The notes beneath the pieces were generated by a model that worked only from the letters and a program-made list of their open reading frames with translations, did no database searches and was not told where the DNA came from. The translations under genes and the position numbers were made by a program. A stretch of DNA of 64,000 nucleotides from a virus. The stretch spans positions 1 through 64,000 of the IMG/VR virus record IMGVR_UViG_3300013005_000002; one strand, given 5' to 3'. Below, in pieces: positions 8,249 through 46,332 of this stretch; position 1 is the first letter of the stretch, and each line of letters begins with the position of its first letter.

Positions 8249-8446
8249 TTAGTCATCAAACACACTATCTGTTGAATTTCTTTGAGGAAATTCAAGTTTT
8301 ACATCAGGCTGTAATATAGACATTACGGCTTCAATCCAAGCTAAAGATACTTGTAGTTCTCCAGGTACATCGTATGTTGTACCATTGCGATAGTTTTGTT
8401 TAGCCATTTCATTAATTTTATTTATTTGTTCATTAGTTATTTTCAT
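8249..8446 (-). CDS. Hypothetical protein (MKITNEQ...)
   Basis: ORF track with the start moved to ATG 8446. Confidence 0.55.
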   Translation of the reverse strand: MKITNEQINKINEMAKQNYRNGTTYDVPGELQVSLAWIEAVMSILQPDVKLEFPQRNSTDSVFDD

Positions 8447-8606
8447 AAAAAACGCTCCAATATATATTAAACGCAATCTGATAATCTAAAATAAGTTCAA
8501 GTGGATAAAAAACTTTAATAAATTCATATGATGTATTTAAATGTGAGTATAAAATAGGTTCATACATGTCATAAAAACCAAAATCAATATTTTTATATTT
8601 TCTCAT
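8433..8606 (-). CDS. MKKY-family microprotein, 57 aa
   Basis: MRKYKNIDFGFYDMYEPILYSHLNTSYEFIKVFYPLELILDYQIAFNIYWSVFYENN; ATGA overlap with upstream ORF. Confidence 0.75.
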   Translation of the reverse strand: MRKYKNIDFGFYDMYEPILYSHLNTSYEFIKVFYPLELILDYQIAFNIYWSVFYENN

Positions 8607-8767
8607 GTAAAAAATCCAAAAAAATGATAAGTATAAAATTCAAAAAGTTTAAAATTTTGTGTTATTTTAAATTTCATTACATCATCCCAATATTTTTTAT
8701 ATAAAATATGTCTAAGATTAGGTGAAGAAATTTTATTAACAGTAAATATTATTTTATATTTTCTCAT
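8603..8767 (-). CDS. MKKY-family microprotein, 54 aa
   Basis: MRKYKIIFTVNKISSPNLRHILYKKYWDDVMKFKITQNFKLFEFYTYHFFGFFT; upstream ORF ends NEKI* inside the motif. Confidence 0.75.
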   Translation of the reverse strand: MRKYKIIFTVNKISSPNLRHILYKKYWDDVMKFKITQNFKLFEFYTYHFFGFFT

Positions 8768-10672: not shown

Positions 10673-10677
10673 AATTA

Positions 10678-10707
10678 ATTGTATACCTTATGTTTAAATT
10701 ATGTCAA
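10678..10707 (-). promoter_or_regulatory. sigma70-type promoter (near-leaderless)
   Basis: TTGACA-N18-TACAAT, 5 nt before ATG 10672. Confidence 0.6.
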
Positions 10708-10866
10708 ATATTTTAATTGTACTTCAGCAATTGTTTTAAGTCTTATAAAAAGAGGATAATAAATAGAATTACTAAGTTTTGATTCTAATTTAATTAAAAT
10801 TGTAATATTAAATTTATACCTTTCATAATTATTTAAATAAATTTTTAGATTTTGATATTTTTTCAT
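10699..10866 (-). CDS. MKKY-family microprotein, 55 aa
   Basis: MKKYQNLKIYLNNYERYKFNITILIKLESKLSNSIYYPLFIRLKTIAEVQLKYLT. Confidence 0.75.
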   Translation of the reverse strand: MKKYQNLKIYLNNYERYKFNITILIKLESKLSNSIYYPLFIRLKTIAEVQLKYLT

Positions 10867-10867
10867 A

Positions 10868-11035
10868 TTAAATCATTCCGAGTAATTTATGTTTATAAAT
10901 AAAAAAGGATTGTTTTATGGTGGGATAAATTGATTCAAAAGCCCATAAATGAAGTTTACTTCTAAGTGAATATATTACTTGTTCATCTATATTAGAATAA
11001 ATCATTTTAGCGCCAATATTTTTATACTTTTTCAC
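10868..11035 (-). CDS. MKKY-family microprotein, 55 aa (GTG start)
   Basis: MKKYKNIGAKMIYSNIDEQVIYSLRSKLHLWAFESIYPTIKQSFFIYKHKLLGMI; GTGA overlap with VWA gene stop. Confidence 0.75.
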   Translation of the reverse strand: MKKYKNIGAKMIYSNIDEQVIYSLRSKLHLWAFESIYPTIKQSFFIYKHKLLGMI

Positions 11036-12183: not shown

Positions 12184-12187
12184 ATCT

Positions 12188-13240: not shown

Positions 13241-13270
13241 TTTATCCTCCGATATTGAATATGTTATTAT

Positions 13271-13918: not shown

Positions 13919-13928
13919 AAAATCTCCT

Positions 13929-14141
13929 TTAAGTTAAATTTTCTATTAAGTAATTAGTAAAATAATAAGCTTTTCTATAATCAATGTATACCGAATGAAA
14001 ACCAGAGTCTATATCATAATTAATTTTATCTAAAAATTGACCCATTTGATAATTAAGATGGTCACTAAGAAATAAAGATTCAATAGGCCAATTAACTACA
14101 TGTGTTTTTTGTTCAAACTTTAAATTACTGTACTTTTTCAC
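13929..14141 (-). CDS. MKKY-family microprotein, 70 aa (GTG start)
   Basis: ORF track MKKYSNLKFEQ...; GTGA overlap. Confidence 0.75.
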   Translation of the reverse strand: MKKYSNLKFEQKTHVVNWPIESLFLSDHLNYQMGQFLDKINYDIDSGFHSVYIDYRKAYYFTNYLIENLT

Positions 14142-15124
14142 TTAATCAAACCTTTACGTTTTGCCTCAATAAATCGATACATTAATTCATTACCATTCAT
14201 ATATTCACTATCTTTTTTTATCTTAAAAAAATCATAATAAACAGAATATGCATATAAAAACAAACCCATACTCCAAAAAAAGTGAGCAAAATATAATTTA
14301 AAAAAATCCATAAAATCATATAAAAATAACATTTAATTCTCCCTAGAATATTCATATTGTTTTTCCGCAAGGTATTCCAGCTTGTCACACCATGCATCAT
14401 AAGCCCACGCATCAACTAAGTCATTACATTTTTCTAGGATTGTCTCTTGTTCTTTTATTGGAAAACTAGAAAGCTTTCTTTCTACTTGACTATCGTGGTC
14501 AAATATTGAAGCAATGAAATAATCACAGTTATTTGCTGATGTAGCGTTTAGTTCAAGCTCTACTTCAATTTGTGCGCAATACTCACCATCGGTTGATGTA
14601 AAGTGATCCGACTCAAATAAAAATGTTTTTGTCATGTTCTTACTCCTTTAGTTATTATATCTTAGTCTTTAGTCCAAAGCAATTTATTTCCGAAGCTGGC
14701 TCTTATTGAGACGCGACCATTCATATACACTACAACTTTACCTTTAAGCATTCCGGCTCTAATAGAATTCTTTCTAAACCTACCAACAATATATTCTATT
14801 TCATCTAGAGATAACCCTGTGATATCACTAGCATATTCTATGTTGTTAGGGTCACTTAGGTAAAAAGATTGCTCAATCATATTTTAATCCTACAGGTAAG
14901 ATATAAGTATTTTCTTCTTTTTTGGATTTTGTTTTCTTATATTTATTTTTATAAATAAGATCTAGGTTTTTTCCACTAGACTTTATTTTTAAACTTCGGA
15001 TGATCCAATTAGCTGAGCCTTGTGAAACATTAAACATTTGAGCTAATTTATAATCACTATAATTAAATTTTTTGTAGGTTTCAATTATTTTATTTTTTAA
15101 ATCAACATTCATTTTATTTAACAT
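14138..15124 (-). other. Run of small hypothetical early genes (14138-14332, 14333-14635, 14662-14880, 14873-15124 HTH-like)
   Basis: Abutting same-strand ORFs. Confidence 0.55.
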
Positions 15125-15578
15125 TTTTTAGTTCCTTTCTTAAAATGTCTAATCCTCTTTTAATTGTTGCTTTTGTTGTATCATAATTTAAATTACGTTC
15201 TTTTGCTATTTCGGAAATAGTCATTTCTCCAAATAAATACTCTTTAACACGTTTTTTTGTTTTTCCATTTAATCTTTCTATTTGATTTATAACTTTAACA
15301 AAAAGCTTGTTGTCCGAGTAAATCACTTCATTATAATCTTTAAACATATTTTGATATTCTTTTGCTAATCTAACGCCATTCTTTTGATTAGTATCTACAT
15401 TTAATAGTGCCAATCTAAATCCTTTATGATAGTAAGTATTTAAATTTTCTATTTTAAGTCCTTTGTTTTTTATTAGAAGATTGTGAAATATGTCCTCAAT
15501 CAAATATTCATCACACTTTGGGTTTGTTTTTTTTAAATAAGATTTCACTTGTAAATACTCTTTTTCAGTTAGTTTCAT
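15114..15578 (-). CDS. ECF/sigma70-like factor
   Basis: Region-2-like IEDIFHNLLIK and region-4 HTH EMTISEIAKERNLNYDTTKATIKRGLDILRK. Confidence 0.65.
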   Translation of the reverse strand: MKLTEKEYLQVKSYLKKTNPKCDEYLIEDIFHNLLIKNKGLKIENLNTYYHKGFRLALLNVDTNQKNGVRLAKEYQNMFKDYNEVIYSDNKLFVKVINQIERLNGKTKKRVKEYLFGEMTISEIAKERNLNYDTTKATIKRGLDILRKELKNVK

Positions 15579-15714
15579 TATTTATTCCTTTACCCAGCCA
15601 AAAACCGCACCAATTAAAAAATATACATAAAATACTGGGAATAGTAAATATGTAAACATGCCGATAAGCCCAGGTAAGAATAGCACTGTTAATATTGTTA
15701 AAATTATAATCATA

Positions 15715-17412
15715 TTAATCCCTAAAATATCCGTAAAAGTTCATATCAGCCTCACAAATCTCATCGGCTAATAAGTCTGTCAACTCTTCTAGTTCATTGT
15801 CGTTTAAATCCTCAAGGTCACCATCAAGATATCCTCCTGAAGAAATGTGAGAGTCACAAGCTGAATGTCTACCTAATTCAATTTCGAGTTCTACAGGTCT
15901 ATTCTTATAAGTTGTTTTCATTTTACACGTCCTATTCTTTTTACTTCTTTAAGATTAAACCATATTCCAATTTGATATGGATTATTTTGAGTTACAAATA
16001 CATTAACAGATTCTCCGTCTACTCGATTTACAACACCTGTTTTACCTGGTAAGCCTTTTTTAATTCTAACAATATCTTTCGATTCAATAGGTCTATTTTT
16101 ATATGTTGTTTTCATTTTAAATATCCTCCCTAAAATAATCCTCAATTTCATTTTTTGCATCTCTAAAGTCACAGTTCAATAGAATGCTTGCAATTGAACT
16201 CGCCCACATGTATTGTATGTTTTTATAACAATATCTTAAAACATCATCTATTTGTTGTTTATCAAACAAGTCATTCATATTATCACTTGAATTACTCATT
16301 TAAACATTCCTTTCACTAATGCTTTAAAAATAGCATATATTGGATATAAAATATATAAAGAGTATAATAGTATAAACGGTGAGAATAGGATGAATATTGC
16401 TGTTAACATTTATTCTCCTCCAATTTGTTGTTTTAATTCATTTACAATATAATGATCGTAGTTTAGTGCATTTTCTTGATATTGCCCCACAAATCCCCAA
16501 CATGAGTCGATATGTTCCCAACCTATGTCAACTTCTGGATTCCATTTTTCTAGCACATATCCAAAGACACCGTCATCATTAATTCTTTGAATCATTTTCT
16601 TTTTATCAATTTCTAATTGTTTAGCGTCAATGTCTGGATTAGTCTTTGGACAGTAAGCATCTCCTAATAAATCATTGATTGGGCAACGATCGTCTGGAAT
16701 TTCTACAATGCGATAATTGTTTTGTTGTAAAATGATACGTTTCATAACTATGTCCTTTCACTTAAAGATTCATTTAAGTCATAAATAATTGAATTTACTA
16801 GGTTATTTCTTTCTTGATCTGTCATCTTGTATTTATTGATGCAATCCCCTGCATAGCTGGATAAAACGTCAATCAATAGTCTAGTACCTTGTCTTGACAG
16901 AATTTCATTTAAAACTTTAACATCATTCTTTACTTGGTCAACATCACCATAATTTGTTGTAATACTTGAAACATAACTCATAAAATCTCCTTTATTAAAA
17001 TGATTTATAAATAATTGTTTCGTCGTCAACTTGGATTACTGTCGTGTTGTCTTGTAAATCCTCCAAAGACTCGCACCCAGTCTCGCGCTCTATATCTTTG
17101 ACATCAATCTCGCTGTAGTCACAGCATAGTGCAATAACGTCAAGCTCTAATTCCATGTCGCAGTCTTGCTCAAGCTGCTCCAAGTGCTCAAATAACGCTC
17201 TTAATCCTGCCCGGCTGAACTGGTCTTGTCTGCCATAAGCTGTGAATGCTCTGATAAAGTCTGATTCATCGATTGTTTGTTTCATTTTACTTCCCTCCGT
17301 TTGATTGTTTAATAATACACATTAAAAACACAACAACACAAATTAAATATCCATATTGGCCTAAAGTGATATTAGCTACAGAACATAAGGATATTAATTT
17401 TACTGTTTCCAT
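15715..17412 (-). other. Cluster of small early genes (15715-15921, 15918-16115, 16117-16299, 16410-16745, 16748-16981, 16995-17285 and a 41-aa ORF starting at 17412)
   Basis: Tightly packed same-strand ORFs with GGAG/GAGG SDs. Confidence 0.6.
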
Positions 17413-17439
17413 TGTCGCCTCGCTTGTACATATATCTAT

Positions 17440-17455
17440 TGCAATCGTTCGGCCA
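17440..17455 (-). promoter_or_regulatory. sigma54 (-24/-12) promoter heading the early operon
   Basis: TGGCCG-AACGA-TTGCA; predicted +1 near 17429, GAGG SD and ATG at 17412. Confidence 0.65.
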
Positions 17456-17610
17456 CCCTTGAATCAATTATAACACTTACTCGCACCACCCACACTGTCA
17501 AAAAATCATACAATTTATCAGTTTACCCGGCTAACCTGTTGATTTTACGTGCATTTCGCCACTGTAAAACTTACATGCATTTTAAAAAACTTATACGCAT
17601 CAAAATTAGA

Positions 17611-17640
17611 TTGACAAAATAACAAGTTAGAGTGTATCAT
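17611..17640 (+). promoter_or_regulatory. sigma70-like promoter containing a TAACAAGTTAG motif in its spacer
   Basis: TTGACA-N18-TATCAT; motif at 17620-17630. Confidence 0.5.
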
Positions 17641-17644
17641 AATG

Positions 17645-18060
17645 AGAACAACTGGTTGACAAGGTAATAGCTGCAAAATCAAGGCCTTAGTCAATTTGAT
17701 ACAGGTAATAGCTCGGATGGCACAAGGGTATTCTTCCCTTGAGTAAGTGGATGAACCTCAAGACTTATAAACTTGAGGTGGCATTAAATAGGCTTTACTC
17801 ATAACCTGTATTGACGCTCACTAGAATAGCGAGACACTCTAGCCACTTCTAAATAACGTCTCAATCCGAGACAAATTATATCCTCACTGGATAGTTAGTG
17901 AATATTGTCTCAAAACAAAGCACATTTGCTGTTTTAGCTTGAACCTTAGAGTGAAGCCGAAACAAAGTGAAAGGCTGAACGCTTCAAGCGTAAAACCACA
18001 TCCCAAAATGATACGTCACGGATTAGTGGATTTTATTAAAAATCGGTGTATTAAATCGGG
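17645..18060 (+). ncRNA. Candidate structured RNA or structured DNA element
   Basis: ORF-free about 400 nt with several nested inverted repeats, downstream of a promoter-like site. Confidence 0.35.
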
Positions 18061-18070
18061 ACTACCCCAA

Positions 18071-20032
18071 TTAGTTTAAAAATTCATTGTTTTCATTGGA
18101 TATAATCTCAAAATGAATCAAGTCTAAAAATGAAAAATCATCCATTTCTACAATTTTAAAATCATAATCTGGAAAGTCATGAGACAATTGAAACATTTTA
18201 ATTTGAGACTCGGCATAATTATTGCAAGTGTTCTCAATTGAAGATACTTCTTTGTTATTTAATAGTTTAATACCTTTAATTTTCACCATAAAATGAACTC
18301 CTTATATCCAATAAGCGTTATAACTTGCCACTACCTTATTATAATGGCATATAATCCAAACATGAAGTGTATAATGTAGTATGTATCATATTGCTACATA
18401 TATAGACAAAGCATGAGTGTAGTAATTTGAGACATAATCCAGAAAGAGTGTATTAAACTGAGATTGGAATTATTCTCATCAATTTTCAATTCAATCATTT
18501 TCTGTTTACACTCCACTCAACAACACTATCAATATTCTGTCTACTTGTTGGCATAATTCTTGCAAACTCTAATGCTATTGCAAGTATCATACCAATGAGT
18601 ACTAATCCTATTATTTTTTCAAACATATATTCTCCTTTTGAGATAAATAAAAATCCATCCTGTTAACCCCCCGATTGCGTTTCCCCCCCTTAAGCTTCTA
18701 TCCACTGTAACAATGCCTCTATCGTCTTGTTGTGAATACCATTGAACCCCATGTCTCTTAGTACTTCGAACATGGCAAAGTCCATGTATCGAGGGCTACA
18801 ACTATACTTAGACTGCCACGTGACATTGAACTGCTCTGCCAGTCTTGTCTTGTCAACATGTTGTTTTATATCTTTGAACTTCATATCATCCAACCTTTGG
18901 AAGTATGAAGATTAACTCATAGACGTTATCCACGCAATTGTAGCCATAAGTCTCGCACAAGTTGATAACATGTCTATCAATTTGACTGATGTACTTCTTT
19001 GACTTGCGCTTAGACCTGACAATGCTGCTTGCAAGTTCTGTGCCAGAATAATGTTGTTGCAATTGTACCAGTCTTTGTGAGATGATATAGGATTCCGGAT
19101 TCTGGTTTGAATATTCTAGACCTAGTTGTTGTTTCATATAATCATCCTTTCCTGTTTACGTAAACGTGTCACTGTTGGCTTTGGTTGAATTTTTTTAGTC
19201 CGTTGGGGTTTAGTCACCCCATCGGCGTAACCGGGTTTGCAGACAACATAGAGCGCATTCATTGAGCCGACTGGTAGTTTCACTTGACACCCCCCTCTTG
19301 AATAGACATAGATCTGAATTCAAAGGGCAGGAACCCTTGACGGTCAACGGTGGACCCGTGAGCCTTGCAGATCTGCAGTCGGTAGGGTTCCAGGTCTTGC
19401 CATGAAAGATACAGCCTTAAGACTGAAGACTTGCCCTTGCCTCGGTATTCTGGTGGGAACTGATATCTGAAGCCAAGCCTATAGACATAGTTGCCTAGGT
19501 CTAGGGCCATGAGGCCTTTGTCCTTTGGAGTCTTGCCTAGGTGAATCTCTATGAAAGCCGGACACCCTGTTGGGCTGGTGTCGTGAGATACAAGGTTGAT
19601 TTTTAAAGTTTTAAAGTCCACGTTACTCCTCCCCATTGTAGCAAGTTTCATTCTGCAAAGTATCACTGATGTCCCACCCATTCTGAACTTGATCGTACAG
19701 GAAACTGATAGGGACATCGATGATAGACTCTGAACTTGAAGCTCTGAATGTATCGTTGTCTAGGGTTTCAATTTTGAGTTCATTCTCGACTGCGTATTGT
19801 ATACATAGAGCCTTAATTTGGATTGCATGTACTTGTTTCATTTTTTTTCTCCTTTGTTTGCGACCTATAAAATTTATCGGTTAATCTAAAAAAAACTTGA
19901 GTACTTTCTTAATTTATTTTTTTTCTCGGAACGGTACACTTGTTTCCGGTCTGAGTCAAACATTAAACCGTAGAGTCCCACAAGTAGAGATACACCCACC
20001 ATTATATTAGTTGTAACGTCGGGATTCAACAT
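18071..20032 (-). other. Small early genes (18071-18289, 18690-18893, 18886-19137, 19134-19283, 19280-19621, 19623-19841, 19886-20032)
   Basis: ORF track plus SD-based start revisions; visibly higher GC than the rest of the window. Confidence 0.55.
18549..18594. promoter_or_regulatory. Face-to-face pair of sigma54-type motifs
   Basis: + TGGCAT-AATTC-TTGCA at 18549-18564; - TGGTAT-GATAC-TTGCA at 18579-18594. Confidence 0.55.
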
Positions 20033-20035
20033 ACT

Positions 20036-20239
20036 GTCTCCTTTTGAGATGCGTATCATTATAGGATTTGTATACTGCATATGCTGTGCCAATGTCTAGA
20101 TGGGTTTTATTTGATCTGGAGTGGTGTCGGTGTCAACTGGATGAGCGTATCATTGTGGGATAGCTGAATGATTACATGGAGTTAGGTTGCAGGTGTTAGG
20201 ATGCTGACATGTCAATAAGTTATGCGTTTCATTTGATAC
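20036..20239. repeat. Second cluster of the GT(A/C)TCA-N3-TGA(G/T)AC palindrome
   Basis: 20036 GTCTCC-TTT-TGAGAT; 20053 GTATCA-TTA-TAGGAT; 20147 GTATCA-TTG-TGGGAT; 20226 GTTTCA-TT-TGATAC. Confidence 0.55.
20076..20091 (-). promoter_or_regulatory. sigma54 (-24/-12) promoter
   Basis: TGGCAC-AGCAT-ATGCA, followed by AGGAG SD and ATG at 20032. Confidence 0.65.
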
Positions 20240-20338
20240 GGGGGTATAGCGGTTCTGTGGGTCTTGATATGTGCAAATATAGCCACACAGCAAACGGACC
20301 ATTTTTTCATATTTTTTGCTAAATACATGTGTCCAAAA

Positions 20339-20349
20339 TAACAAGTTAG
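20339..20349 (+). promoter_or_regulatory. Late-promoter-like motif
   Basis: TAACAAGTTAG about 20 nt before ATG 20369. Confidence 0.65.
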
Positions 20350-20368
20350 ATAAACCCCTGGAGTTAGT

Positions 20369-21112
20369 ATGAAGATAATGTCTAGCACGTGTAAATGTTG
20401 CAAACAAACCAAAACAAAGATAGCTAAAAAAGAAGGAAATAAATTTAATTATGTTGATGAAAATAATACACTCTGGAAAGGTAGGTATTGCCCTTCCTGT
20501 AAAAAAGAATATACAGCAAGTTACAATAAACTAAAGCCCCGGCCATCCGCCTACAAAAAATCAACTAAACCTCTTTTGGATAAAACTTGTACTGTTTGCA
20601 AAACAGAGTTTAAAACAAAAAATCCAAGACAAGGACTATGTTCTAAGGAATGCAGAAGACAAGTTAAAAATTTAAAACGTAGAAAACCTCTATCTCCTAA
20701 AAAAGTAAAAGAACCAAAAATTGTACATCCTAAAAATTGTCTGACATGCAGTAAAAGCTTTTTACCTAAAAACTCACGAGGTAACTATTGTCAAAAAAAA
20801 TGTATGCCTAGTGAAATTAAGTATCGCAAGAAAAGTAATCATACCGCTGCTGCCAAAAAACTAAGAAAACAACGAAAGCTTGTGCAAAAGTTTAAACAAC
20901 CTATATCAAAGAAGTTTAAAAAAGAAATATTAGAAATATACGCTAGTAAACCTGAAGGATACGAGATAGACCACATTGTGCCTATAAACCATCCTGACGT
21001 ATGTGGATTACATGTGCCTTGGAATTTAAAAGTTTTAGCTAAAGAAGATAATTTAAAAAAGTCTAATAAGTTTGATGGTACTAATGAAAATAATAATTGG
21101 GCTATCCTATAA
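20369..21112 (+). CDS. HNH endonuclease with N-terminal zinc ribbons
   Basis: Multiple CxxC; EIDHIVP..CGLHVPWNL..N..KSNK. Confidence 0.85.
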   Translation: MKIMSSTCKCCKQTKTKIAKKEGNKFNYVDENNTLWKGRYCPSCKKEYTASYNKLKPRPSAYKKSTKPLLDKTCTVCKTEFKTKNPRQGLCSKECRRQVKNLKRRKPLSPKKVKEPKIVHPKNCLTCSKSFLPKNSRGNYCQKKCMPSEIKYRKKSNHTAAAKKLRKQRKLVQKFKQPISKKFKKEILEIYASKPEGYEIDHIVPINHPDVCGLHVPWNLKVLAKEDNLKKSNKFDGTNENNNWAIL

Positions 21113-21269
21113 ATAGTACACTATTCTTCATTACTCTCCAATACAACTTGCTATACAGGGATAAGGATAGTCCTGTATAAATGTTAGACCTTAAATCAAT
21201 TGGCATTGAAAGCACGTTAATTGTTCTATCTAAATTAAACACTATTACTACCCTATTATATTTTCTCAT
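21102..21269 (-). CDS. MKKY microprotein a, 55 aa
   Basis: MRKYNRVVIVFNLDRTINVLSMPIDLRSNIYTGLSLSLYSKLYWRVMKNSVLFIG. Confidence 0.75.
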   Translation of the reverse strand: MRKYNRVVIVFNLDRTINVLSMPIDLRSNIYTGLSLSLYSKLYWRVMKNSVLFIG

Positions 21270-21418
21270 TAATAATACACTTTCCGCATAATAGCTAGAT
21301 ACACCATAAAATACTGAGGACCACTTTCTGCAATTATAGTTTCTACGCTTGGTGACAATAATCCTATGTATTTAAATTTATAAACATTAGTTACTTCTAT
21401 GTTTTTATACTTTCTCAT
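21269..21418 (-). CDS. MKKY microprotein b, 49 aa
   Basis: MRKYKNIEVTNVYKFKYIGLLSPSVETIIAESGPQYFMVYLAIMRKVYY; paralogue of d. Confidence 0.8.
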   Translation of the reverse strand: MRKYKNIEVTNVYKFKYIGLLSPSVETIIAESGPQYFMVYLAIMRKVYY

Positions 21419-21569
21419 AAAGAGAATCTCTCATATTTTTAAACAACTGATTATAGTCACTAAAGTCTAACAAAGAAAATCTTCTTTCTGTTATAAGAAG
21501 TATATTATAACATATATCGTTACTCATTTGAAAAGATAAATTCATTTCAATTATTTTATATTTCTTCAT
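21405..21569 (-). CDS. MKKY microprotein c, 54 aa
   Basis: MKKYKIIEMNLSFQMSNDICYNILLITERRFSLLDFSDYNQLFKNMRDSLYEKV. Confidence 0.75.
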   Translation of the reverse strand: MKKYKIIEMNLSFQMSNDICYNILLITERRFSLLDFSDYNQLFKNMRDSLYEKV

Positions 21570-21721
21570 TAATAAAACACTTTTCTCATCACAGCAAGTC
21601 TCACCATAAAATACTGAGGTAAAGCCCCTGCAATTAAAGTTTGAAGATTAGGCGCTATTTGTTGATACATTCTATTTCTACCATTAATATTGTTTATTAC
21701 TATTCTATTATACTTCTTCAT
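21569..21721 (-). CDS. MKKY microprotein d, 50 aa
   Basis: MKKYNRIVINNINGRNRMYQQIAPNLQTLIAGALPQYFMVRLAVMRKVFY. Confidence 0.8.
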   Translation of the reverse strand: MKKYNRIVINNINGRNRMYQQIAPNLQTLIAGALPQYFMVRLAVMRKVFY

Positions 21722-21861
21722 ACCTTACCTATATACTTTGCATTCATATATAATGCCAAAAGTGGATAATAGTCACATACAGTCAAATCAAGTTCTCGGG
21801 CTAAGCGGTCATACGCTATCATTGGAATAAAATCTATACTTACTAAATTATATTTTTTCAT
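21718..21861 (-). CDS. MKKY microprotein e, 47 aa
   Basis: MKKYNLVSIDFIPMIAYDRLARELDLTVCDYYPLLALYMNAKYIGKV. Confidence 0.75.
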   Translation of the reverse strand: MKKYNLVSIDFIPMIAYDRLARELDLTVCDYYPLLALYMNAKYIGKV

Positions 21862-22018
21862 CATATCCCATTACCTTACTTATACTTAACATAGCAAAGA
21901 AATAAAACATTGCTATTCTAAGATTCCATACTGGCTTTAATTCTACAAGAGTATTATATTGTATAGAACGACGTAAGCTTTCTTTAATACGTAAATCTAA
22001 ATTGTTATATTTTTTCAT
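21848..22018 (-). CDS. MKKY microprotein f, 56 aa
   Basis: MKKYNNLDLRIKESLRRSIQYNTLVELKPVWNLRIAMFYFFAMLSISKVMGYDEKI. Confidence 0.75.
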   Translation of the reverse strand: MKKYNNLDLRIKESLRRSIQYNTLVELKPVWNLRIAMFYFFAMLSISKVMGYDEKI

Positions 22019-22021
22019 GTT

Positions 22022-22171
22022 TTACCAAAATAAAGGATACATTGGAATAAATATAAAACCACTTATAATTGTATGAATACGTAGTTCAGTTGCGTAATTT
22101 ACTTCATACTTGAGTCCTTCTATTTTATTTAGAGTTAACCCCTTTATTTTTATGCATTTATATTTTTTCAT
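22022..22171 (-). CDS. MKKY microprotein g, 49 aa
   Basis: MKKYKCIKIKGLTLNKIEGLKYEVNYATELRIHTIISGFIFIPMYPLFW; paralogue of i. Confidence 0.8.
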   Translation of the reverse strand: MKKYKCIKIKGLTLNKIEGLKYEVNYATELRIHTIISGFIFIPMYPLFW

Positions 22172-22335
22172 ATATTTTCTTTTAAAGCATAACACACTCT
22201 AGCATAAACCTGAAATCCAAAAGGTAAAAGAATTTCTTTAGACAGTTTATAATAAAATAAAACTTCAATTTGCGTTTTAAATACAGAGTTAAGATGACTG
22301 GATACTCCAGTATGTATATTTTTATATTTTCTCAT
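22168..22335 (-). CDS. MKKY microprotein h, 55 aa
   Basis: MRKYKNIHTGVSSHLNSVFKTQIEVLFYYKLSKEILLPFGFQVYARVCYALKENI. Confidence 0.75.
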   Translation of the reverse strand: MRKYKNIHTGVSSHLNSVFKTQIEVLFYYKLSKEILLPFGFQVYARVCYALKENI

Positions 22336-22487
22336 ATTTCACCAAAAAGAAACCACACAGGAAGATATGGAAACTGTCCTAGTATTATGTGGATATACAA
22401 TTCAGTTTTATAATCTACCTCATACTTATAGCTTTCTATTTTATTAAGAGTTAGTCCCCTCATTTTTATGCACTCATACTTCTTCAT
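22332..22487 (-). CDS. MKKY microprotein i, 51 aa
   Basis: MKKYECIKMRGLTLNKIESYKYEVDYKTELYIHIILGQFPYLPVWFLFGEI. Confidence 0.8.
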   Translation of the reverse strand: MKKYECIKMRGLTLNKIESYKYEVDYKTELYIHIILGQFPYLPVWFLFGEI

Positions 22488-22635
22488 AATATAATGCTTC
22501 ATTTCTTAATTTACACATTATTTGCCAAAATCCTTGGTCAAAGACCACATCTATTTGATGCGTAGTTTCAAAATTAAAACTCCGACATTGATATAAATTT
22601 TTATAGTACAGGTATATTCTATTATATTTCTTCAT
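22474..22635 (-). CDS. MKKY microprotein j, 53 aa
   Basis: MKKYNRIYLYYKNLYQCRSFNFETTHQIDVVFDQGFWQIMCKLRNEALYYEEV. Confidence 0.75.
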   Translation of the reverse strand: MKKYNRIYLYYKNLYQCRSFNFETTHQIDVVFDQGFWQIMCKLRNEALYYEEV

Positions 22636-22792
22636 AAATATAATGTTTCACTTTAAATTTTATTTGATGAGCAGTATGATGTGCACCTGTCGATAAAGCA
22701 GGAAATTTTATATATTTTGTCTGGTTTAAAAACAGTACACTTAACTGGTATCTTAAGCTAAACCATAAACTATAATTATGATATTTTCTCAT
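22622..22792 (-). CDS. MKKY microprotein k, 56 aa
   Basis: MRKYHNYSLWFSLRYQLSVLFLNQTKYIKFPALSTGAHHTAHQIKFKVKHYIYEEI. Confidence 0.75.
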   Translation of the reverse strand: MRKYHNYSLWFSLRYQLSVLFLNQTKYIKFPALSTGAHHTAHQIKFKVKHYIYEEI

Positions 22793-23202
22793 TTAACACA
22801 TATCACTTCTCTAATTAAAACTATAATCCAAGTTTTATCTCCCCTAGTTACTGTAATCTCTACTTTAGTACCAGGCTTACCCCTGATCTCTTCATTAGAG
22901 TGTATAACATCCCCGGCTTTAAGTCCAGCTTTAAATGCTGGGTATCCTTCATATACAGATTCAATTAAGGGAAATCCAGAAAGACCTATACCACCAAATG
23001 TATCCACACAGGCTTCACCTGGATTATCTCCTTTAGGAATAATAATGGTTTCTTCAAGTCCCCCTTTTGGATGATCGCCGCTACCTAATTCCTGCAAATC
23101 AACGGTGATTGATTTAGGCTGCTGAGGGGAGATGAAAATAAGCGACACCAATCCAAAATGGATAAGAGTACTAGCTATAAAAAATTTTATATCTCTAAAC
23201 AT
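22789..23202 (-). CDS. Membrane-anchored PDZ-domain protein
   Basis: N-terminal TM with S..IH; FGGIGL; PAFKAGLKAGDVI; IRGKPGTKVEITVTRG (S41/CtpA-type PDZ). Confidence 0.8.
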   Translation of the reverse strand: MFRDIKFFIASTLIHFGLVSLIFISPQQPKSITVDLQELGSGDHPKGGLEETIIIPKGDNPGEACVDTFGGIGLSGFPLIESVYEGYPAFKAGLKAGDVIHSNEEIRGKPGTKVEITVTRGDKTWIIVLIREVICVK

Positions 23203-23368
23203 TTTTTAATACACCACTGGATATCTTATAATTAAATACTAACGAAATAAATAGTTTGGATATTTTATTCTCCACCATGTACCCAGCATTTTTTCTAATA
23301 TAGCCGAGGTAGTGATAATACACTTGGTCATATACTTGACCTATGTGTACTGGTTTATATTTTTTCAA
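23195..23368 (-). CDS. MKKY-family microprotein, 57 aa (TTG start)
   Basis: MKKYKPVHIGQVYDQVYYHYLGYIRKNAGYMVENKISKLFISLVFNYKISSGVLKNV; TTGA overlap. Confidence 0.7.
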   Translation of the reverse strand: MKKYKPVHIGQVYDQVYYHYLGYIRKNAGYMVENKISKLFISLVFNYKISSGVLKNV

Positions 23369-24711
23369 GCTTTAGTCCAGTATTTATCTTGGATAGTTTT
23401 TCCACATACATTACCAAAGATTCCTGGCTTTACAAACTCAATACCATCTAAAGACGACACAAGTTCATCGGTAATTTCAGGATAGATTTTGCACATACGT
23501 TGTATGGCAAAATTATACACTTGCTTCTGATACCATAATCCAAGTTTGTGTAGTCCTGTGTATTTAGTAAAAGGTTTAGTAACGTGCCAATCAAAATTAT
23601 AAAGAAGAGGCCACTTTATCCAAACATAGCCTGGGTACAATAGTGAGTGTAACCCGCCATCCCAGAAATATGGATGGTCGCGGAATGTGCCATACTTTTC
23701 TTTTCCATGAGTACCAATTCTACCATAGGTTTTCCATGTACGCATAATATAACTAATAGCAATATCTAGCTTATCTCCATGTTCTTCAAACCATGTATCA
23801 CCCCACTGATGACTTGGCATATTTTCTCCTTTTTTTAGGTTTATATTTTTCTAATTTATAGAAAGAATTTTCTGTTTCTATTTGGTATCCGCCCTTAACT
23901 TTAATGCAACTTACAATAGGGGAGGATCTAAACCAACCAAATGCATTAGTAAGATAAATCCAAATAGATGTGCCTTTAGCAATAACCTGTACTTTAGATG
24001 CAGTCATAACTAGGTTTTTAACTTCATATAAAGCTTCTCTTCTATCCTTAGTTCCTATTTTAGTTAATGAATACATAGACTTATAATCAATTAGATCTAG
24101 TCCAGTGCTCTTAGCTAGCTTTATAGTTTCTTTTTTACTTAGTGGACTGTCTGGATATATTTTAATAGTGCCCATATATTACACTTTTTCTCCACAATCA
24201 GGACATTTATAGTAGGCAGTTCTATCTGTCTCATAGTCATAGTGTCCGATTTCTCTTCCCCAACGATTAGCTAATCCGTGCTGCTTCCAGCCAGCGTAGT
24301 TTTTAGAAATACTAAGAGCTTTTTTTTCAGTATAACCTTGATCCAGAAAGGTCTGATAAATGAGTTCCCCATCTAAGTTTGTTCCGCAATGTTTACAAGG
24401 TCTCATCTTATTTTTTTCCTTTCCTATAAATCAATACGTTTGAGCTGATATAGTAGTTTTAGTGTTTTTTTCAACGATAATTATTAGTATAGGCAATTAT
24501 GTGCCTTCATAGCTTTTAAACAAAATTTATATAATTCTTGAGGTACGGTAAAAATTGCTTCTTCACCCTCTTGAAAAGTGTATAACTTCCCGTCATCCTT
24601 TTTGTATTGCATTACTTTTTTATTGATTTTTCTAGCTGCCCGGAAATGTTCAACAAATACTTTGTAGCCGGATTTTGTTTTTACTATGTTTTGGAATTCT
24701 ACCATATGCAC
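23365..24711 (-). other. Hypothetical genes 23365-23820, 23798-24175, 24179-24406 (zinc ribbon), 24484-24711
   Basis: ORF track. Confidence 0.6.
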
Positions 24712-24720
24712 CTCTGGATT

Positions 24721-24749
24721 AGTTTAAAATATAATTTAGGACAAGTCAA
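24721..24749 (-). promoter_or_regulatory. sigma70-type promoter
   Basis: TTGACT-N17-TAAACT. Confidence 0.55.
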
Positions 24750-24945
24750 TATATAATACACTATTTATAAAAAAAGTGCTATCTAGAATATTATCCCATA
24801 GCCACCCCGGATTTTTTAAATCTTCAGGAGAATCTTTAGTCCATCTAGTAATGTATTCACTTATCTCATATCTTGGATCATCCATAAAATATTCTTTTAA
24901 TATTTCAAAGCCTTTATTAAATTCTACATTACGATATTTTCTCAT
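24736..24945 (-). CDS. MKKY-family microprotein, 69 aa
   Basis: ORF track MRKYRNVEF...; ATGA overlap. Confidence 0.75.
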   Translation of the reverse strand: MRKYRNVEFNKGFEILKEYFMDDPRYEISEYITRWTKDSPEDLKNPGWLWDNILDSTFFINSVLYIDLS

Positions 24946-25121
24946 AAAAATAGATTATTATTCCAAAGCAATCGGTTTAATAGAAGTTCTTCTATTAATC
25001 TTACTTCAAGAAAATTAATACTTTTTAATGTTGTGTACATATGATCACTAATGTAGCGTCTATATTGTGTATGAATTTCAAATACTTCGTATACAAGCAC
25101 TGTTTTTTTATACTTTCTCAT
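24942..25121 (-). CDS. MKKY-family microprotein, 59 aa
   Basis: MRKYKKTVLVYEVFEIHTQYRRYISDHMYTTLKSINFLEVRLIEELLLNRLLWNNNLFL; TTGATT-N16-TATTAT 6 nt upstream. Confidence 0.75.
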   Translation of the reverse strand: MRKYKKTVLVYEVFEIHTQYRRYISDHMYTTLKSINFLEVRLIEELLLNRLLWNNNLFL

Positions 25122-25168
25122 TTAAATATAATACACTTTTATTTAAATTAATCAAGGAAAATATGATG

Positions 25169-25180
25169 TTAACAAGTTTA
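25169..25180 (+). promoter_or_regulatory. Late-promoter-like motif
   Basis: TTAACAAGTTTA about 20 nt before ATG 25200. Confidence 0.65.
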
Positions 25181-25199
25181 ATTAGAGGTAGATAAGATT

Positions 25200-25463
25200 A
25201 TGTCAGATAAATCCCCGGCCAAAGGTAAAAGATTTAGTAAGCTGTTTAAGAATCCTGAGACTGGTAGGATGAATAAGGTATCTTATGGACAAGCTGGTAA
25301 AGCTTCTGACGGTGGAGATAGGATTAGGCCGGGCACAGATAAAGCTGCGGCTTACTGCGCTAGGAGTAACAAGATTAAAGGTGACTGGAGAAGTGACCCC
25401 AATAGTCCTAATAATTTAAGCAGACGTAAGTGGAAGTGTGTAGGGGATAAGTCTAGGAAGTAA
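25200..25463 (+). CDS. Small basic phage protein (YCARS..W family)
   Basis: ORF track; GAGGT SD. Confidence 0.7.
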   Translation: MSDKSPAKGKRFSKLFKNPETGRMNKVSYGQAGKASDGGDRIRPGTDKAAAYCARSNKIKGDWRSDPNSPNNLSRRKWKCVGDKSRK

Positions 25464-25534
25464 ATCTCTAGCAAGCAGAGCTTGCGGTGATTTTCGGTAG
25501 AAAATCTATTGTGTAGTAGTCAAAGGAAGCGCGA

Positions 25535-25711
25535 ATGAAAAAAATGTTAAAAAGAGAAGATGGTAGTAAATCACAAAAAGGTCTCTGGGATAATATCCGA
25601 GCTAAGCGTGAACGTGGTGAACCTAAAGCTAAACCAGGAAGTAAAGACTATCCTGAGAAAAAAGCTTTTGCTAAAGCTAGTGGTAGATTTAAAAAACTAT
25701 TTAAAAAGTAA
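25535..25711 (+). CDS. Small basic protein, 58 aa (not in ORF track)
   Basis: MKKMLKREDGSKSQKGLWDNIRAKRERGEPKAKPGSKDYPEKKAFAKASGRFKKLFKK. Confidence 0.7.
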   Translation: MKKMLKREDGSKSQKGLWDNIRAKRERGEPKAKPGSKDYPEKKAFAKASGRFKKLFKK

Positions 25712-27048
25712 TTAGTTACCTTTAAAATATTTACTAATATCTATTGTAAATCCTTTAGGTAAATTTATAACACAATCCATACTGCTATCGGTGCTATCAT
25801 CAAAATAATAAGCATCACTAGAACTAGTATACGGACTAAATCCATATTGTTTAGGGTCCCAGTTTGATCCACCAAAAAGAGTAGGCGCAACTTCAGGTTC
25901 TGTATATGTGGGCTCTTTCTTACAAGACCTACAGAACCAAAACTCAGACCTACCCCATACTTGTTTAGCGATATCTAAACTATTACAATGATTACATTTA
26001 CTTGGCTCTTTTTTGTCCATTTTTGTTTTTCCTAAAAACGACAGTTCCTGTCGCTTTATTAAAATAGATTTTCATATTTAATAGTAATAAAAATTGATTA
26101 AAAACAAAAGACTTTAATCCTGATTCGGCTAAATAAATGTCGTAAGACAAATCCCATGAGTTTGTTTTAAAATGTGATTTTATATCATTAGCCATTAACT
26201 TTAACTTTGGATTAGTTTTTAATTCATCTTTTGCTTTTTTATTCATATTGGATACAAAGTTTTTTCTTAATTCTGCTATTTGTTTACTCATTTATTTCCC
26301 CAATGTTTCAATTTCATCAATTGTTATTGTAACTACTTTATAATCTTTATCAATACATACAAAAATAATATCAGGCTTACCTATTGTTTTAGGAATACCT
26401 AATATACTTACTACTTTTAAGTTTAGTCCGGATTTAGTCTTTAATAATTGCATTATAGTTCTCCTAAAAAAACAATTTCTTTTTCAAAATTAGTTAGCAA
26501 TTCATTAACCATTGTTTCTCTTGTTTTTTCTTCCCACCAAAAATCATCGATTTTAGCCGAGTGTTTATTAATAAGCCAAATAGCAAAGCTATTATGTATT
26601 TTTTTTGGCACAAAACTAATATGATCCGTTAATGGAAAATAGTACACATACTCTTTATCCACGGTCACGTCTTTGTGCAATAAGTTCTTCTTTAACTAAA
26701 GTAAAATTATACAATTGATTCAATGTGATAAAACCATAAGCTTCATTGACATTGTCAAAAAAGCGCACATCCCACATTGAACTGGAATCTTCTTTAGGCA
26801 TAAGATATTCTAATCTATACTCTATTCTTTTTTCTTTTTCCATATATACCTTCCTTTGGTCCATAATAATATAAAGGTTTAGATCCGTCAAGATATTCTT
26901 CAATAGATTCGGGATTATGTACTTCAATGTGTGCTTTTACTAAAGCCAGTATATCACCTAGTTGTAATTCCTGGTTTATACACATTTCATCAATAATACA
27001 CTCTAAATCTAATAAAATCTTACCCATTGACCGAGTTTTTTTATCCAT
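25712..27048 (-). other. Minus-strand accessory cassette of small hypothetical genes (25712-26020, 25998-26291, 26453-26680, 26655-26843, 26815-27048)
   Basis: ORF track; preceded by TTGCTT-N17-TATTAT at 27058-27086. Confidence 0.6.
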
Positions 27049-33449: not shown

Positions 33450-34764
33450 CTTCTAATAGTACCATAACTGCAAGCTCACTTAAACCACTAAATACTCTAT
33501 CTCCTGTATTTAATTGATTGTATTGGTCTAATTTATCTCCATAAGCAAATTCTGAGTGCTTTAGTAATCCTAGAGGAATTGGAGTTGTATTAGTTTTAAG
33601 TCCAATAGAATTATCATAGGTCCAGGTTAATGGATCTTCTTCATACATATATTCTTTAGCTTCTTCTAAGTACTTAGCGGTAATCATGTCTGGTGCTACT
33701 TCTTTAATTAATCCAACAAAATACAAGTTATACCAGGATTTACTTAAGTTAAAGATATATCTAAGCGCAAATCTATACACAAACTTTTCAACCTTAGTGT
33801 CAGCAAGCTTTAAAAGGATGTAAAGCGCATGAACACAATTGGCATCATTGAAATATCCACGTCTATCTGGTAAATATGCGGTAGGTAATAATGATAACAA
33901 TGAATAACCTTTTTTATAGAAAAGATTCCAATATTCTTTTTCACTGCTTTTGGATTTATTCTTTTTAGCGTTAGTTTTAAGTGCTGCCAGAATTGTTAAA
34001 GCTTGTGCTCCTACAGTTTCTAGTCCAGGTTGAAACATTGCCCGACTGGATTTCATTCTTACTGCCTCTGGTCTTAAACTAGCTTCTTTTAATCGTTTAT
34101 TCCATAGAGTTTTATATGGTTCATCTGGTGGTTCTTGTGCTTCAAGTATAGAATAATCAAACTCTATGATATTACTAACTAATTGGTCATATTTTTCAAG
34201 AAGCAGTTCTTGAGATGAATTTTGTAAATTAGTATCAAGCATAGCTAAAGATAAACCTAAAAGCATATCACCTGATGTAGATTTCATATTAAATATAAAT
34301 TTATTCTCTGTGTAATCCCACTTGTAGCCGCGAGCTAAGTAGTTACCTTGCATACACTGAGTAAGAGCATAATCCATCTGAGCATTTCTTTTGCCTAGTT
34401 TAGACATTAAAAATACATACTGACCATGTCTCAATAGCTGATGGTCCGGACTGTGGTTTGCTCCGTTTAAAACATCAATAAGCTTATTTCTAGGTAAGTA
34501 TAGCTCATAGAATTCATTCTTAAGTACAGGAAGAAATTTAAGGATTTTTTGCATCCGTTGAGTCTTTTGCGTTTTATTTAAACGCCTAGCGACAGGAGGA
34601 CGTTTTTTATATTTAAATTTATTGTATAAAATACCGTAGATGCCTAAACATCCAATAAGTAATAGTTTAATTGGAAGACTAATCCAATGTAAAGTATCTC
34701 TAATAATATTTTTAAATGTATTGGTTTTAACATCAGTAACAATTTCTAAATATTTATTTAACAC
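33406..34764 (-). CDS. Hypothetical 452-aa protein with N-terminal membrane anchor
   Basis: ORF track; AGGAG SD. Confidence 0.7.
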   Translation of the reverse strand: MLNKYLEIVTDVKTNTFKNIIRDTLHWISLPIKLLLIGCLGIYGILYNKFKYKKRPPVARRLNKTQKTQRMQKILKFLPVLKNEFYELYLPRNKLIDVLNGANHSPDHQLLRHGQYVFLMSKLGKRNAQMDYALTQCMQGNYLARGYKWDYTENKFIFNMKSTSGDMLLGLSLAMLDTNLQNSSQELLLEKYDQLVSNIIEFDYSILEAQEPPDEPYKTLWNKRLKEASLRPEAVRMKSSRAMFQPGLETVGAQALTILAALKTNAKKNKSKSSEKEYWNLFYKKGYSLLSLLPTAYLPDRRGYFNDANCVHALYILLKLADTKVEKFVYRFALRYIFNLSKSWYNLYFVGLIKEVAPDMITAKYLEEAKEYMYEEDPLTWTYDNSIGLKTNTTPIPLGLLKHSEFAYGDKLDQYNQLNTGDRVFSGLSELAVMVLLEDEIYENITNPKSFN

Positions 34765-34922
34765 AAATAATCTCCTAAATTAAAAAATTCATCTTCTCTA
34801 AGAATATCTACAGTATCAACTAATTTAGTAGTATATTTAATAAAAAAGTTATCCCTAAAAAATGGGTATTTTTTAGCTAATATACCAGGAGTGTCTACCT
34901 CTATTTTTTGATATCTTTTCAT
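34758..34922 (-). CDS. MKKY-family microprotein, 54 aa
   Basis: MKRYQKIEVDTPGILAKKYPFFRDNFFIKYTTKLVDTVDILREDEFFNLGDYLC; ATGA overlap. Confidence 0.7.
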   Translation of the reverse strand: MKRYQKIEVDTPGILAKKYPFFRDNFFIKYTTKLVDTVDILREDEFFNLGDYLC

Positions 34923-44985: not shown

Positions 44986-45400
44986 ACATCCTACTCTTTC
45001 TATCAGTTCTCACACCTAAGTCAAGGTGAACCCACGTCGTGACCTTACCTTTAGTAAAATCAGGATTTTCCAACCACAGCTCATATTTCTTTAGTACCTC
45101 AGGCTTCCCTTTCAGTATCCCCGCTATACTCTGCTTACTATCATCCAAAATGTCCACAGCTAAGCACTGTGTATGCAAGCTCTTCTTAGCAGCATTTGCA
45201 ATCTGCGCATTTACAGCACTTGGTCTAAATCCTGAACTCACCTTAAGCTTAGTTGTATCAATCCCGCACTCAGCCAAACAAGCATTTACAGCTTTAAGCA
45301 ACTTTGCTGCATTATCCAAATATTCTTGCGTAAGTTCCTTATTTTTTTCTCTGTCTGGATATGCTCCGCTTGCTGTCAAATATTCACGTAAATCAATCAT
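44975..45400 (-). CDS. Peptidase M15-type endolysin
   Basis: SSGFRP..N; KSLH....AVD; WVHLD. Confidence 0.85.
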   Translation of the reverse strand: MIDLREYLTASGAYPDREKNKELTQEYLDNAAKLLKAVNACLAECGIDTTKLKVSSGFRPSAVNAQIANAAKKSLHTQCLAVDILDDSKQSIAGILKGKPEVLKKYELWLENPDFTKGKVTTWVHLDLGVRTDRKSRMFNP

Positions 45401-45557
45401 AAATTTCCTCTATTGATGTTATAATATGGTGTATTTCTTGTCTAGTACTAATTATTTTCCAAAATAACCATCCATAATTAGTGCGATAAGTCATGTCAGA
45501 AAGAAATCTAGAAATTCTAAACGTGTCTCTACTCAATACGTTATTATATTTTTTCAT
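45393..45557 (-). CDS. MKKY-family microprotein, 54 aa
   Basis: MKKYNNVLSRDTFRISRFLSDMTYRTNYGWLFWKIISTRQEIHHIITSIEEIYD. Confidence 0.75.
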   Translation of the reverse strand: MKKYNNVLSRDTFRISRFLSDMTYRTNYGWLFWKIISTRQEIHHIITSIEEIYD

Positions 45558-45736
45558 ATTAAATTATCTCCCGATAAATCATTACACAAAAAATATAGTA
45601 AATTATAAACATTAAAATCCATAAATAATCCATGAAAAAATATACTACCATAATAAGCTACTCCTAATTGTATAAACAAAAAAGGAGCCATTTTTGCGTT
45701 AGAATCTGTTCTTAAAACTGCATTATACTTTCTCAT
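45554..45736 (-). CDS. MKKY-family microprotein, 60 aa
   Basis: MRKYNAVLRTDSNAKMAPFLFIQLGVAYYG...; upstream gene ends DEKV* inside the motif. Confidence 0.75.
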   Translation of the reverse strand: MRKYNAVLRTDSNAKMAPFLFIQLGVAYYGSIFFHGLFMDFNVYNLLYFLCNDLSGDNLI

Positions 45737-46177
45737 CTGCTTCAACTACATTACCTTTTTTATCATAAAATTTTAAAATCAAGCATTGCTCGTGAGTATC
45801 ACCATCCATAGTAGTTTCCAGCGTATATTTCTTAACTTTACTAATATCTACAATATCAGCAAAATCCTCTAAGTCCAAGTAACAATTACCTTTTTTATCT
45901 TTTTTCACTTTAATATTTTTCATAACTTTACCTCATATTCATTAAATAATTCATATAGTTGCTCTCTTACTGCCTCAAGTACTGCTACTGTAATCTCTGG
46001 ATGTGTCTTTAATAACTCAGCAAGTTTAGGATCACTCGATGATTCATACTTTAATGCTGATCGTAAATATGTCATGTCTAGTTCCCATAAAATACAGTGC
46101 ATGGCTCCGGCTTTGCAAGTAGTTTCATATTCTTCTCTTTCTTCTGGTAAGTTAAATTCTAGTATAGCTTTTGGCAT
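45723..46177 (-). other. Two hypothetical genes (45723-45923, 45920-46177)
   Basis: ORF track. Confidence 0.65.
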
Positions 46178-46332
46178 ATTACACTTCCTGTCTTATTTAG
46201 TACGTCTAGTTTTACCCACCAACGTTCTAGTTTAGCCGGGCGTTTCACATAAGTTACACCTAGCTGCATCCATAACACAAATCCAAAACGCAGAGGGTAT
46301 TTGTAATTAGAAATAGGTTGATATTTTCTCAT
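46159..46332 (-). CDS. MKKY-family microprotein, 57 aa
   Basis: MRKYQPISNYKYPLRFGFVLWMQLGVTYVKRPAKLERWWVKLDVLNKTGSVICQKLY; GAGG SD. Confidence 0.75.
   Translation of the reverse strand: MRKYQPISNYKYPLRFGFVLWMQLGVTYVKRPAKLERWWVKLDVLNKTGSVICQKLY

Follow-up and report, generated by a model that had tools for sequence, protein, structure and literature searches.

Introduction

Several described systems come close to the element studied here, a 14-nucleotide (nt) motif that opens a family of small genes in a phage recorded in IMG/VR. The phage genome measures 79,790 bp and has direct terminal repeats; its first 64 kb are hereafter called the window. Where neighbouring genes overlap by −4 or −1 nt, termination-reinitiation is an established mechanism that acts very locally (Huber et al. 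2019 PMC6728339; PMC10666635). The K|N-Y ramp emerged from a library of over 250,000 reporter variants randomised at codons 3-5, whose high-yield fraction was enriched above all for AADUAU (K|N-Y at codons 3-4); in vitro, MVKYQK appeared within 10 s, whereas hardly any wild-type peptide could be detected at 5 min (Verma et al. 2019, PMC6920384). In the hyperplastic regions of T4-type phages, promoter-early stem-loop (PeSL) cassettes form a short repeat that separates early genes which are small and orphan (Arbiol et al. 2010 PMC2839356; PMC4122927). Finally, T-even phages have internal proteins that differ greatly from one another apart from a common capsid targeting sequence (CTS) of 10 residues (PMC3012670).

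With termination-reinitiation coupling (PMC6728339, PMC10666635) the locus shares co-directional genes, −4 and −1 overlaps, a weak or absent downstream Shine-Dalgarno sequence (SD) and dense polycistronic packing; six family junctions are, however, fixed at −14, a spacing that is rare prokaryote-wide, where −4, then −1, then −8 prevail. As in the K|N-Y ramp, AAR-UAU stands exactly at codons 3-4, in 22 of 23 family genes and with TAT over TAC, yet the ramp is known from synthetic reporters (Verma et al. 2019, PMC6920384), whereas here it is a natural gene family that carries it. The likeness to PeSL cassettes lies in a short repeat among small orphan genes, with homing endonuclease genes, here putative, nearby. 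Insertions, deletions and replacements among close phages break at the PeSL (Arbiol et al. 2010 PMC2839356; PMC4122927), as one four-cassette indel does at the family motif and a non-family indel does not. However, the PeSL is intergenic and holds an early promoter and a terminator stem-loop, whereas the family repeat measures 12-14 nt and lies inside coding sequence. The family repeat is neither promoter nor terminator: promoter-like sites number 35 against 30.7 in shuffled sequence, and the array of family genes contains no minus-strand terminator.

We tentatively favour, as possible rather than probable, a model where the 14-nt motif is the coding start of a lineage-specific microprotein family, a start module independent of the protein body that serves SD-less termination-reinitiation. 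The new details are the family, its Lys-Tyr start and a clean cassette indel; the junction itself is an ordinary result of a conserved coding start combined with common phage gene packing.

A family of small genes with a common start

Coordinates are positions in the 64-kb window, and the family genes all lie on the minus strand. The motif ATGARAAARTATAA has 11 copies in the window against 0.02 expected, all on the minus strand, and the looser ATGARRAARTAT has 20 against 0.41; genome-wide, 21 of 22 motif matches fall on that strand. Extending each match to its open reading frame (ORF) gave 22 genes of 47-70 amino acids (aa), and an M-K-R-Y variant, read directly, is member number 23. The family thus consists of 23 minus-strand genes of 47-70 codons with the start pattern [AGT]TG-ARR-AAR-TAY (Met-Lys/Arg-Lys-Tyr), two of them starting with GTG and one with TTG. 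They are scattered over nine loci, and eleven, U1-U11, stand in an unbroken head-to-tail array from 22792 down to 21102.

22789..23202, minus: gene of a 137-aa protein with weak PDZ matches below the Pfam cut-off; its stop lies in the first motif of the array
22622..22792, minus: U1, MRKY; ATGA 4-nt overlap with the upstream PDZ-like gene
22474..22635, minus: U2, MKKY; 14-nt overlap (U1 ends IYEEI*)
22332..22487, minus: U3, MKKY; 14-nt overlap, TGA at nt 12-14; paralogue of U5
22168..22335, minus: U4, MRKY; 4-nt overlap
22022..22171, minus: U5, MKKY; 4-nt overlap; directly after the PDZ-like gene in contig L051
21848..22018, minus: U6, MKKY; 3-nt gap
21718..21861, minus: U7, MKKY; 14-nt overlap (U6 ends YDEKI*)
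21569..21721, minus: U8, MKKY; 4-nt overlap; paralogue of U10
21405..21569, minus: U9, MKKY; TAATG 1-nt overlap; unrelated body (V5) instead in L051
21269..21418, minus: U10, MRKY; 14-nt overlap (U9 ends LYEKV*)
21102..21269, minus: U11, MRKY; TAATG 1-nt overlap; final array gene
8433..8606, minus: family member, MRKY; 4-nt overlap
8603..8767, minus: family member, MRKY; 14-nt overlap (upstream protein ends NNEKI*)
10699..10866, minus: family member, MKKY; 1-nt gap
10868..11035, minus: family member, GTG start; 4-nt overlap
13929..14141, minus: family member, GTG start, the sole TAC Tyr; 4-nt overlap
23195..23368, minus: family member, TTG start; 4-nt overlap
24736..24945, minus: family member, MRKY; 4-nt overlap
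24942..25121, minus: family member, MRKY; operon head without SD, promoter-like site ending 7 nt 5' of the ATG
34758..34922, minus: M-K-R-Y variant; ATGA 4-nt overlap
45393..45557, minus: family member, MKKY; 4-nt overlap
45554..45736, minus: family member, MRKY; 14-nt overlap (upstream protein ends ADEKV*)
46159..46332, minus: family member, MRKY; operon head with an SD-like GAGG

Across the 23 members, 11 junctions are NTGA overlaps of 4 nt, six are overlaps of 14 nt, two are TAATG, two are gaps (1 and 3 nt) and two genes head operons. All 21 genes that have an upstream neighbour thus overlap it or lie no more than 3 nt away, and 13 of these 21 junctions show the coupling-type spacing of −4 or −1. 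In the 14-nt class the upstream proteins end in NNEKI, LYEKV, YDEKI, YYEEV, IYEEI and ADEKV, that is, in tails of the form [YDN]-E-[KE]-[VI]. An anti-SD duplex of −6 kcal/mol or stronger precedes 3 of 22 family genes, as opposed to 41% of other phage genes and 4% of random sites. The junction tally and the upstream tails given in the initial annotation were reproduced exactly, and its observations that most members lack an SD and that the motif contains stops in both other frames hold as well. Many genes of the phage have a classic SD, so its host is unlikely to be one that disregards SDs.

The ORFs are real coding sequence under purifying selection, because they remain unbroken in AT-rich DNA and show a low in-frame ratio of non-synonymous to synonymous polymorphism (pN/pS). 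The array comprises eleven abutting ORFs of about 50 codons in DNA of 31% GC, where a stop is expected roughly every 13 codons, and between two haplotypes the annotated frame has a pN/pS of 0.31, below the 0.54 and 0.94 of the alternative frames. One further copy, ATGAAAAAATATAAT (MKKYN), beyond the window (genome positions 73541-73660, G000), is in frame but internal to a 274-codon ORF, and by size and context does not belong to the family.

Conservation at the level of the peptide

The initial annotation had proposed that MKKY may be conserved as DNA or RNA rather than as peptide, to be tested by whether its codon choice (TAT not TAC) is more constrained than genome-wide usage. The proposal found no support. 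Upstream of the ATG no position exceeds 0.35 bits; a strong signal runs from +1 to +14 and is followed by T at +20 and +26, each the middle base of a codon (residues 7 and 9, respectively). Met1, Lys3 (22/23) and Tyr4 are conserved, residue 2 is basic and residue 5 polar, residue 7 is I, V or L in 20 of 22 members through six different codons, and residue 9 is also hydrophobic. Codons 3-4 read AAA or AAG plus TAT in 21 genes, AAG plus TAC in one and AGA plus TAT in one. The minor Lys codon AAG appears in 7/22 genes at codon 3 and in 4 of the 12 with Lys at codon 2 (baseline 12-21%), and minor codons in the motif total 12/56, as codon bias alone predicts from a baseline share of 12-25%. Only TAT, used for Tyr4 in 21/22 genes (TAC in 1/22) over a baseline of 75-83%, is in excess, and marginally so. 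Such codon-structured conservation at the amino acid level is not what a DNA site would look like.

These data bear directly on the view that the 14 nt are selected as DNA or RNA, forming a plug-in junction whose off-frame stops guarantee termination and a dedicated recombination site for cassette shuffling. Arg2 is written AGA in 10/10 cases against a baseline of 0.57-0.75, as this view would have it; AGA is, however, a single-step neighbour of AAA, and wobble positions 6 and 9 vary freely. Taken with the stops and breakpoints discussed below, we consider selection of this kind very improbable.

Two other roles for the motif were dropped. Slippery-heptamer frameshifting would rely on AAA-AAA, present in 8/22 genes only, and a TATAAT promoter is spelled in only 6/22.

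A possible start module for reinitiation

From residue 8 on the bodies are unrelated, three paralogue pairs excepted, which implies that the start is kept independently of the fold. Constraint confined to four opening codons suggests a role in translation. Together, the Lys-Tyr start, the scarcity of SDs and the close chaining to the preceding gene support a start module for termination-reinitiation: the module would be kept because the family genes, almost devoid of SDs, depend on that process. We infer that reinitiation does occur and that Lys-Tyr is kept for translation yield. Each cassette duplication would pass on the module, which would stay fixed while the bodies diverge beyond recognition. 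Ribosomes finishing the upstream gene would begin again immediately at the family start, which for this purpose would have to be rich in A, free of structure and favourable to early elongation, with Lys3-Tyr4 (AAR-UAU) as the candidate enhancer. The off-frame stops would be a by-product, with the effect that overlaps are fixed at 4 or 14 nt. Finally, the module is the only sequence common to all cassettes, and there, above all at its ATGA, unequal or microhomology recombination could add or remove whole cassettes.

Several points weigh against this model. Lys-Tyr stands at codons 3-4 in 0/110 other genes of the phage, highly expressed structural genes included, and the folding energy of the start region is the same in family and other genes. 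A codon test cannot tell purine-rich RNA from a Lys-Lys peptide, because Lys codons differ only by A or G. The ramp spans codons 3-5 and leaves the hydrophobic residues 7 and 9 unexplained, and its data come from E. coli and eukaryotic reporters, which may not represent the host of this phage (PMC6920384). Likewise, a 14-nt overlap falls outside the range of −8 to +6 treated as efficient for coupling (PMC10666635).

The main rival explanation is an N-terminal address or interaction tag (M-K/R-K-Y-polar-x-I/V/L) that would deliver diverse small proteins to one destination or partner, the junction traits being by-products. Like the T-even internal proteins (PMC3012670, PMC9026906), the family combines diverse bodies with a short N-terminal segment, here the first 7-9 residues, as the only part in common; conservation at the peptide level is seen at residue 4 (Tyr) and residue 7 (aliphatic), and in T4 the targeting determinants of the CTS are mainly residues 4 and 7 (PMC9026906). 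Fast-evolving accessory proteins would, moreover, suit a role in an arms race. Yet no conserved Glu, and hence no CTS-type [LI]-x-E cleavage motif, was found at residues 8-10 of the family, the head genes examined in the window included no recognisable prohead protease, and the phage is not T4-like. The tagged genes all sit in minus-strand accessory operons, outside the structural module, and relatives with 50-74% identical portal or ribonucleotide reductase proteins have no such genes. A tag also leaves the family-specific lack of SDs unexplained. Overall, we regard an address tag as unlikely, though the strongest of the rivals.

If the Lys-Tyr start is indeed kept for translation, the family would be a natural one fixed on an enhancer so far known from synthetic screens, and its 23 natural variants would offer a test bed for SD-less expression by reinitiation. 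To our knowledge, no natural gene family fixed on the AADUAU or K|N-Y motif has been described.

Off-frame stops and overlap length

The motif had also been described as a self-punctuating junction, in which any upstream ORF entering out of frame terminates. As a description this is correct; as a selected function it is not what we favour, given that the off-frame stops are most simply a near-automatic by-product of M-K/R-K-Y-K/N codons in an AT-rich genome. The TGA at nt 2-4 is forced whenever codon 2 begins with A, and the TAA at nt 12-14 follows whenever Tyr is TAT and residue 5 is K or N. Of the non-family genes, 50% likewise start with NTGA; both off-frame stops occur within 14 nt in 77% of the family, 27% of non-family starts and 10% of internal windows. 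This last difference favours selection of the 14 nt as DNA or RNA, as does the retention of K or N at residue 5, giving TAA, in 11/16 members that do not use TAA as a stop. On the other hand, both stops are expected in most copies from the peptide and codon bias alone, and nt 6-11 of the motif are irrelevant to punctuation, yet the most invariant residues are Lys3 and Tyr4.

The fixed length of the long overlaps has a similar explanation. Non-family genes in the same 3n+2 class overlap by 8 nt (six cases), 11 nt (three) or 14 nt (three), whereas the family overlap is fixed at 14 nt because the conserved start holds no earlier stop in that frame. For annotation this carries a warning, as conserved C-terminal E-K-V/I tails can be the start of the next gene read in another frame.

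Gain and loss of whole cassettes

Breakpoints were compared between two haplotypes readable as DNA. The IMG/VR contig L051 (14.1 kb) and the metagenome contig L144, 99.8% identical to each other, represent a sister haplotype that is 93-96% identical to this genome. Two gene-scale differences between the haplotypes are

22174..22781, minus: four-cassette block U1-U4, absent from the sister haplotype L051/L144; crossover inside the motif ATGA
15926..16295, minus: non-family gene cassette, absent from L051; crossover inside the AAATGA of two ordinary start/stop overlaps; control for the motif

With U1-U4 (607 bp) missing, the sister haplotype has the U5 orthologue directly after the PDZ-like gene. 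L051 also carries one cassette, V5, in place of U9-U10; V5 equals U9 for its first 21 nt only, and its last 19 nt match U11. Within the array, the homology tract between U3 and U5 begins 1 nt ahead of one ATG and ends 23 nt beyond the next, and P0019, a protein of a third haplotype, has the U8 sequence with different residues directly upstream of the same ATG. The U1-U4 indel, the U3-U5 tract and P0019 all fit cassettes bounded by the motif.

The initial annotation had suggested that the motif may be the recombination point for cassette shuffling and that indel breakpoints should be mapped between related phages. One part of this stood, as the four-cassette indel has both breakpoints in the motif; specificity for the motif did not, since the gain or loss of the non-family gene is equally clean at a plain AAATGA, and the V5 replacement departs about 21 nt past the ATG. 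The same evidence divides over selection of the motif as DNA or RNA: the indel, the paralogue tract boundaries and P0019 fall on the motif as a dedicated site would require, whereas the AAATGA indel and mosaic boundaries within cassettes, such as the tail shared by V5 and U11, do not. The motif as recombination point is thus partly supported: on these sequences it is a good substrate for cassette indels, and no more than a candidate for a dedicated site. Indels of whole genes at start/stop overlaps occur generally in this accessory region, and may arise via microhomology or through selection for intact operons. That whole genes come and go precisely at start/stop overlaps in the accessory region of a non-T4 phage extends modular shuffling beyond PeSLs.

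A bolder version of the start module would make it a portable gene-launching cassette, joining, in its 12-14 nt, SD-independent restart, a high-yield Lys-Tyr ramp, out-of-frame termination and homology sufficient for mini-circle-style excision of single cassettes and their reinsertion at any copy or ATGA junction, by which the phage might seed, shuffle and test new microproteins across its accessory operons. We see this as an improbable extension.

Many other replacements separate the haplotypes between 15 and 21.5 kb. The most variable part of the window is 15000-21500, with 81-89% identity and at least six replacements or indels, compared with 94.5% identity at 10840-14902 and 93% at 22781-25414. 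Tandem Repeats Finder reported no tandem DNA repeat in the array.

Each haplotype has its own endonuclease-like gene, HNH-like here and GIY-YIG in L051. The former (20369-21112, plus strand) encodes a protein of 247 aa, rich in Cys, in whose C-terminal part an HNH-like motif can be made out by eye; it has a weak match to Pfam DUF7564, and PHROG 26577 is of unknown function. This is probably a mobile endonuclease gene. It convergently abuts the end of the array and does not occur in L051; within the array, divergence is greatest in the adjoining U9-U11. The L051 gene (567-1265, minus strand of the locus) encodes a 232-aa GIY-YIG-type protein (GIYQI...YIGSS, by eye) between two conserved small genes; its place corresponds to about 25414-25458 in the window, where this genome has no such gene.

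Protein bodies and distribution of the family

Beyond residue 8, relatedness is clear only for U3/U5, U8/U10 and U11/V6, and weak for the genes at 46159 and 45554. No member matched Pfam or PHROGs (no PHROG at E<0.06). A hidden Markov model of the family, run against 1.84 billion representative proteins, recovered only proteins of this phage and near-identical variants, as did a word-indexed search of 5.8 billion proteins. On these searches the family appears to be an orphan confined to this phage species. Five near-complete relatives and 65 further related loci showed no MKKY expansion and no other over-represented N-terminal tetrapeptide. A search of related loci with the family alignment returned no conserved stretch, that with the PDZ-like protein found only L051/L143 and L144, and that with P0019 only L051. 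The cluster members P0023 and P0026 are unrelated long proteins and were set aside as cluster noise. Scanning IMG/VR for two motifs 126-155 nt apart yielded mostly single matches. Unrelated IMG/VR contigs (L111, L084, L131, L127/L052/L135, L107, L139/L134) carry tandem pairs of acidic proteins of 45-67 aa that start MKKY-[RKL]-V, each with an SD of its own; MKKY starts thus recur on small phage proteins outside the lineage.

Could the 23 genes simply be diverged copies of one gene, with the N-terminus as the most constrained element (a first beta-strand) of a common fold and no role in translation or recombination? The three clear paralogue pairs, weak similarities between bodies slightly above expectation (mean z 0.36) and the similar length of the proteins agree with plain paralogy, and the unrelated contigs indicate that an MKKY start is not unique. 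The bodies, however, have no common pattern, and four initial residues as the sole invariant part of a fold would be unusual. Nor did an AlphaFold2 model reveal a shared fold: it was of low confidence (predicted local distance difference test 59), and as a single long helix, built for U5 from a 15-row alignment, it was not used. Plain paralogy is improbable in our judgement, and a start module serving reinitiation is still the explanation we prefer.

The phage and neighbouring genes

The phage is uncultured, and the sequencing runs that contain the stretch are lake-water metagenomes. Its genome has a GC content of about 33% and encodes a P22-like portal, a large terminase, a major head protein, a class II-like ribonucleotide reductase and a Mom-like domain. 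No close cultured relative was found among GenBank phages: tblastn with the portal gave distant matches only, at 29% identity or less, and megablast with 20000-26000 gave no match. An Rfam scan of the window detected no family.

The promoter-like site before the operon-head gene at 24942-25121 reads TTGATT-16-TATTAT (25121-25155, minus strand). The mRNA of this SD-less gene may be leaderless, though promoter-like sites in the region are not enriched over shuffles.

The PDZ-like protein upstream of the array (22789-23202) combines an N-terminal hydrophobic helix with its sub-threshold PDZ match, and the E-x-V/I ends of many array proteins resemble a PDZ-ligand-like tail; that the E-K-V/I tails might serve as PDZ ligands is pure speculation. 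Elsewhere in the window, at 10007-12183 on the minus strand, a subtilase (Peptidase_S8) gene and a DUF2201 metallopeptidase/VWA-like gene have family members on their flanks.

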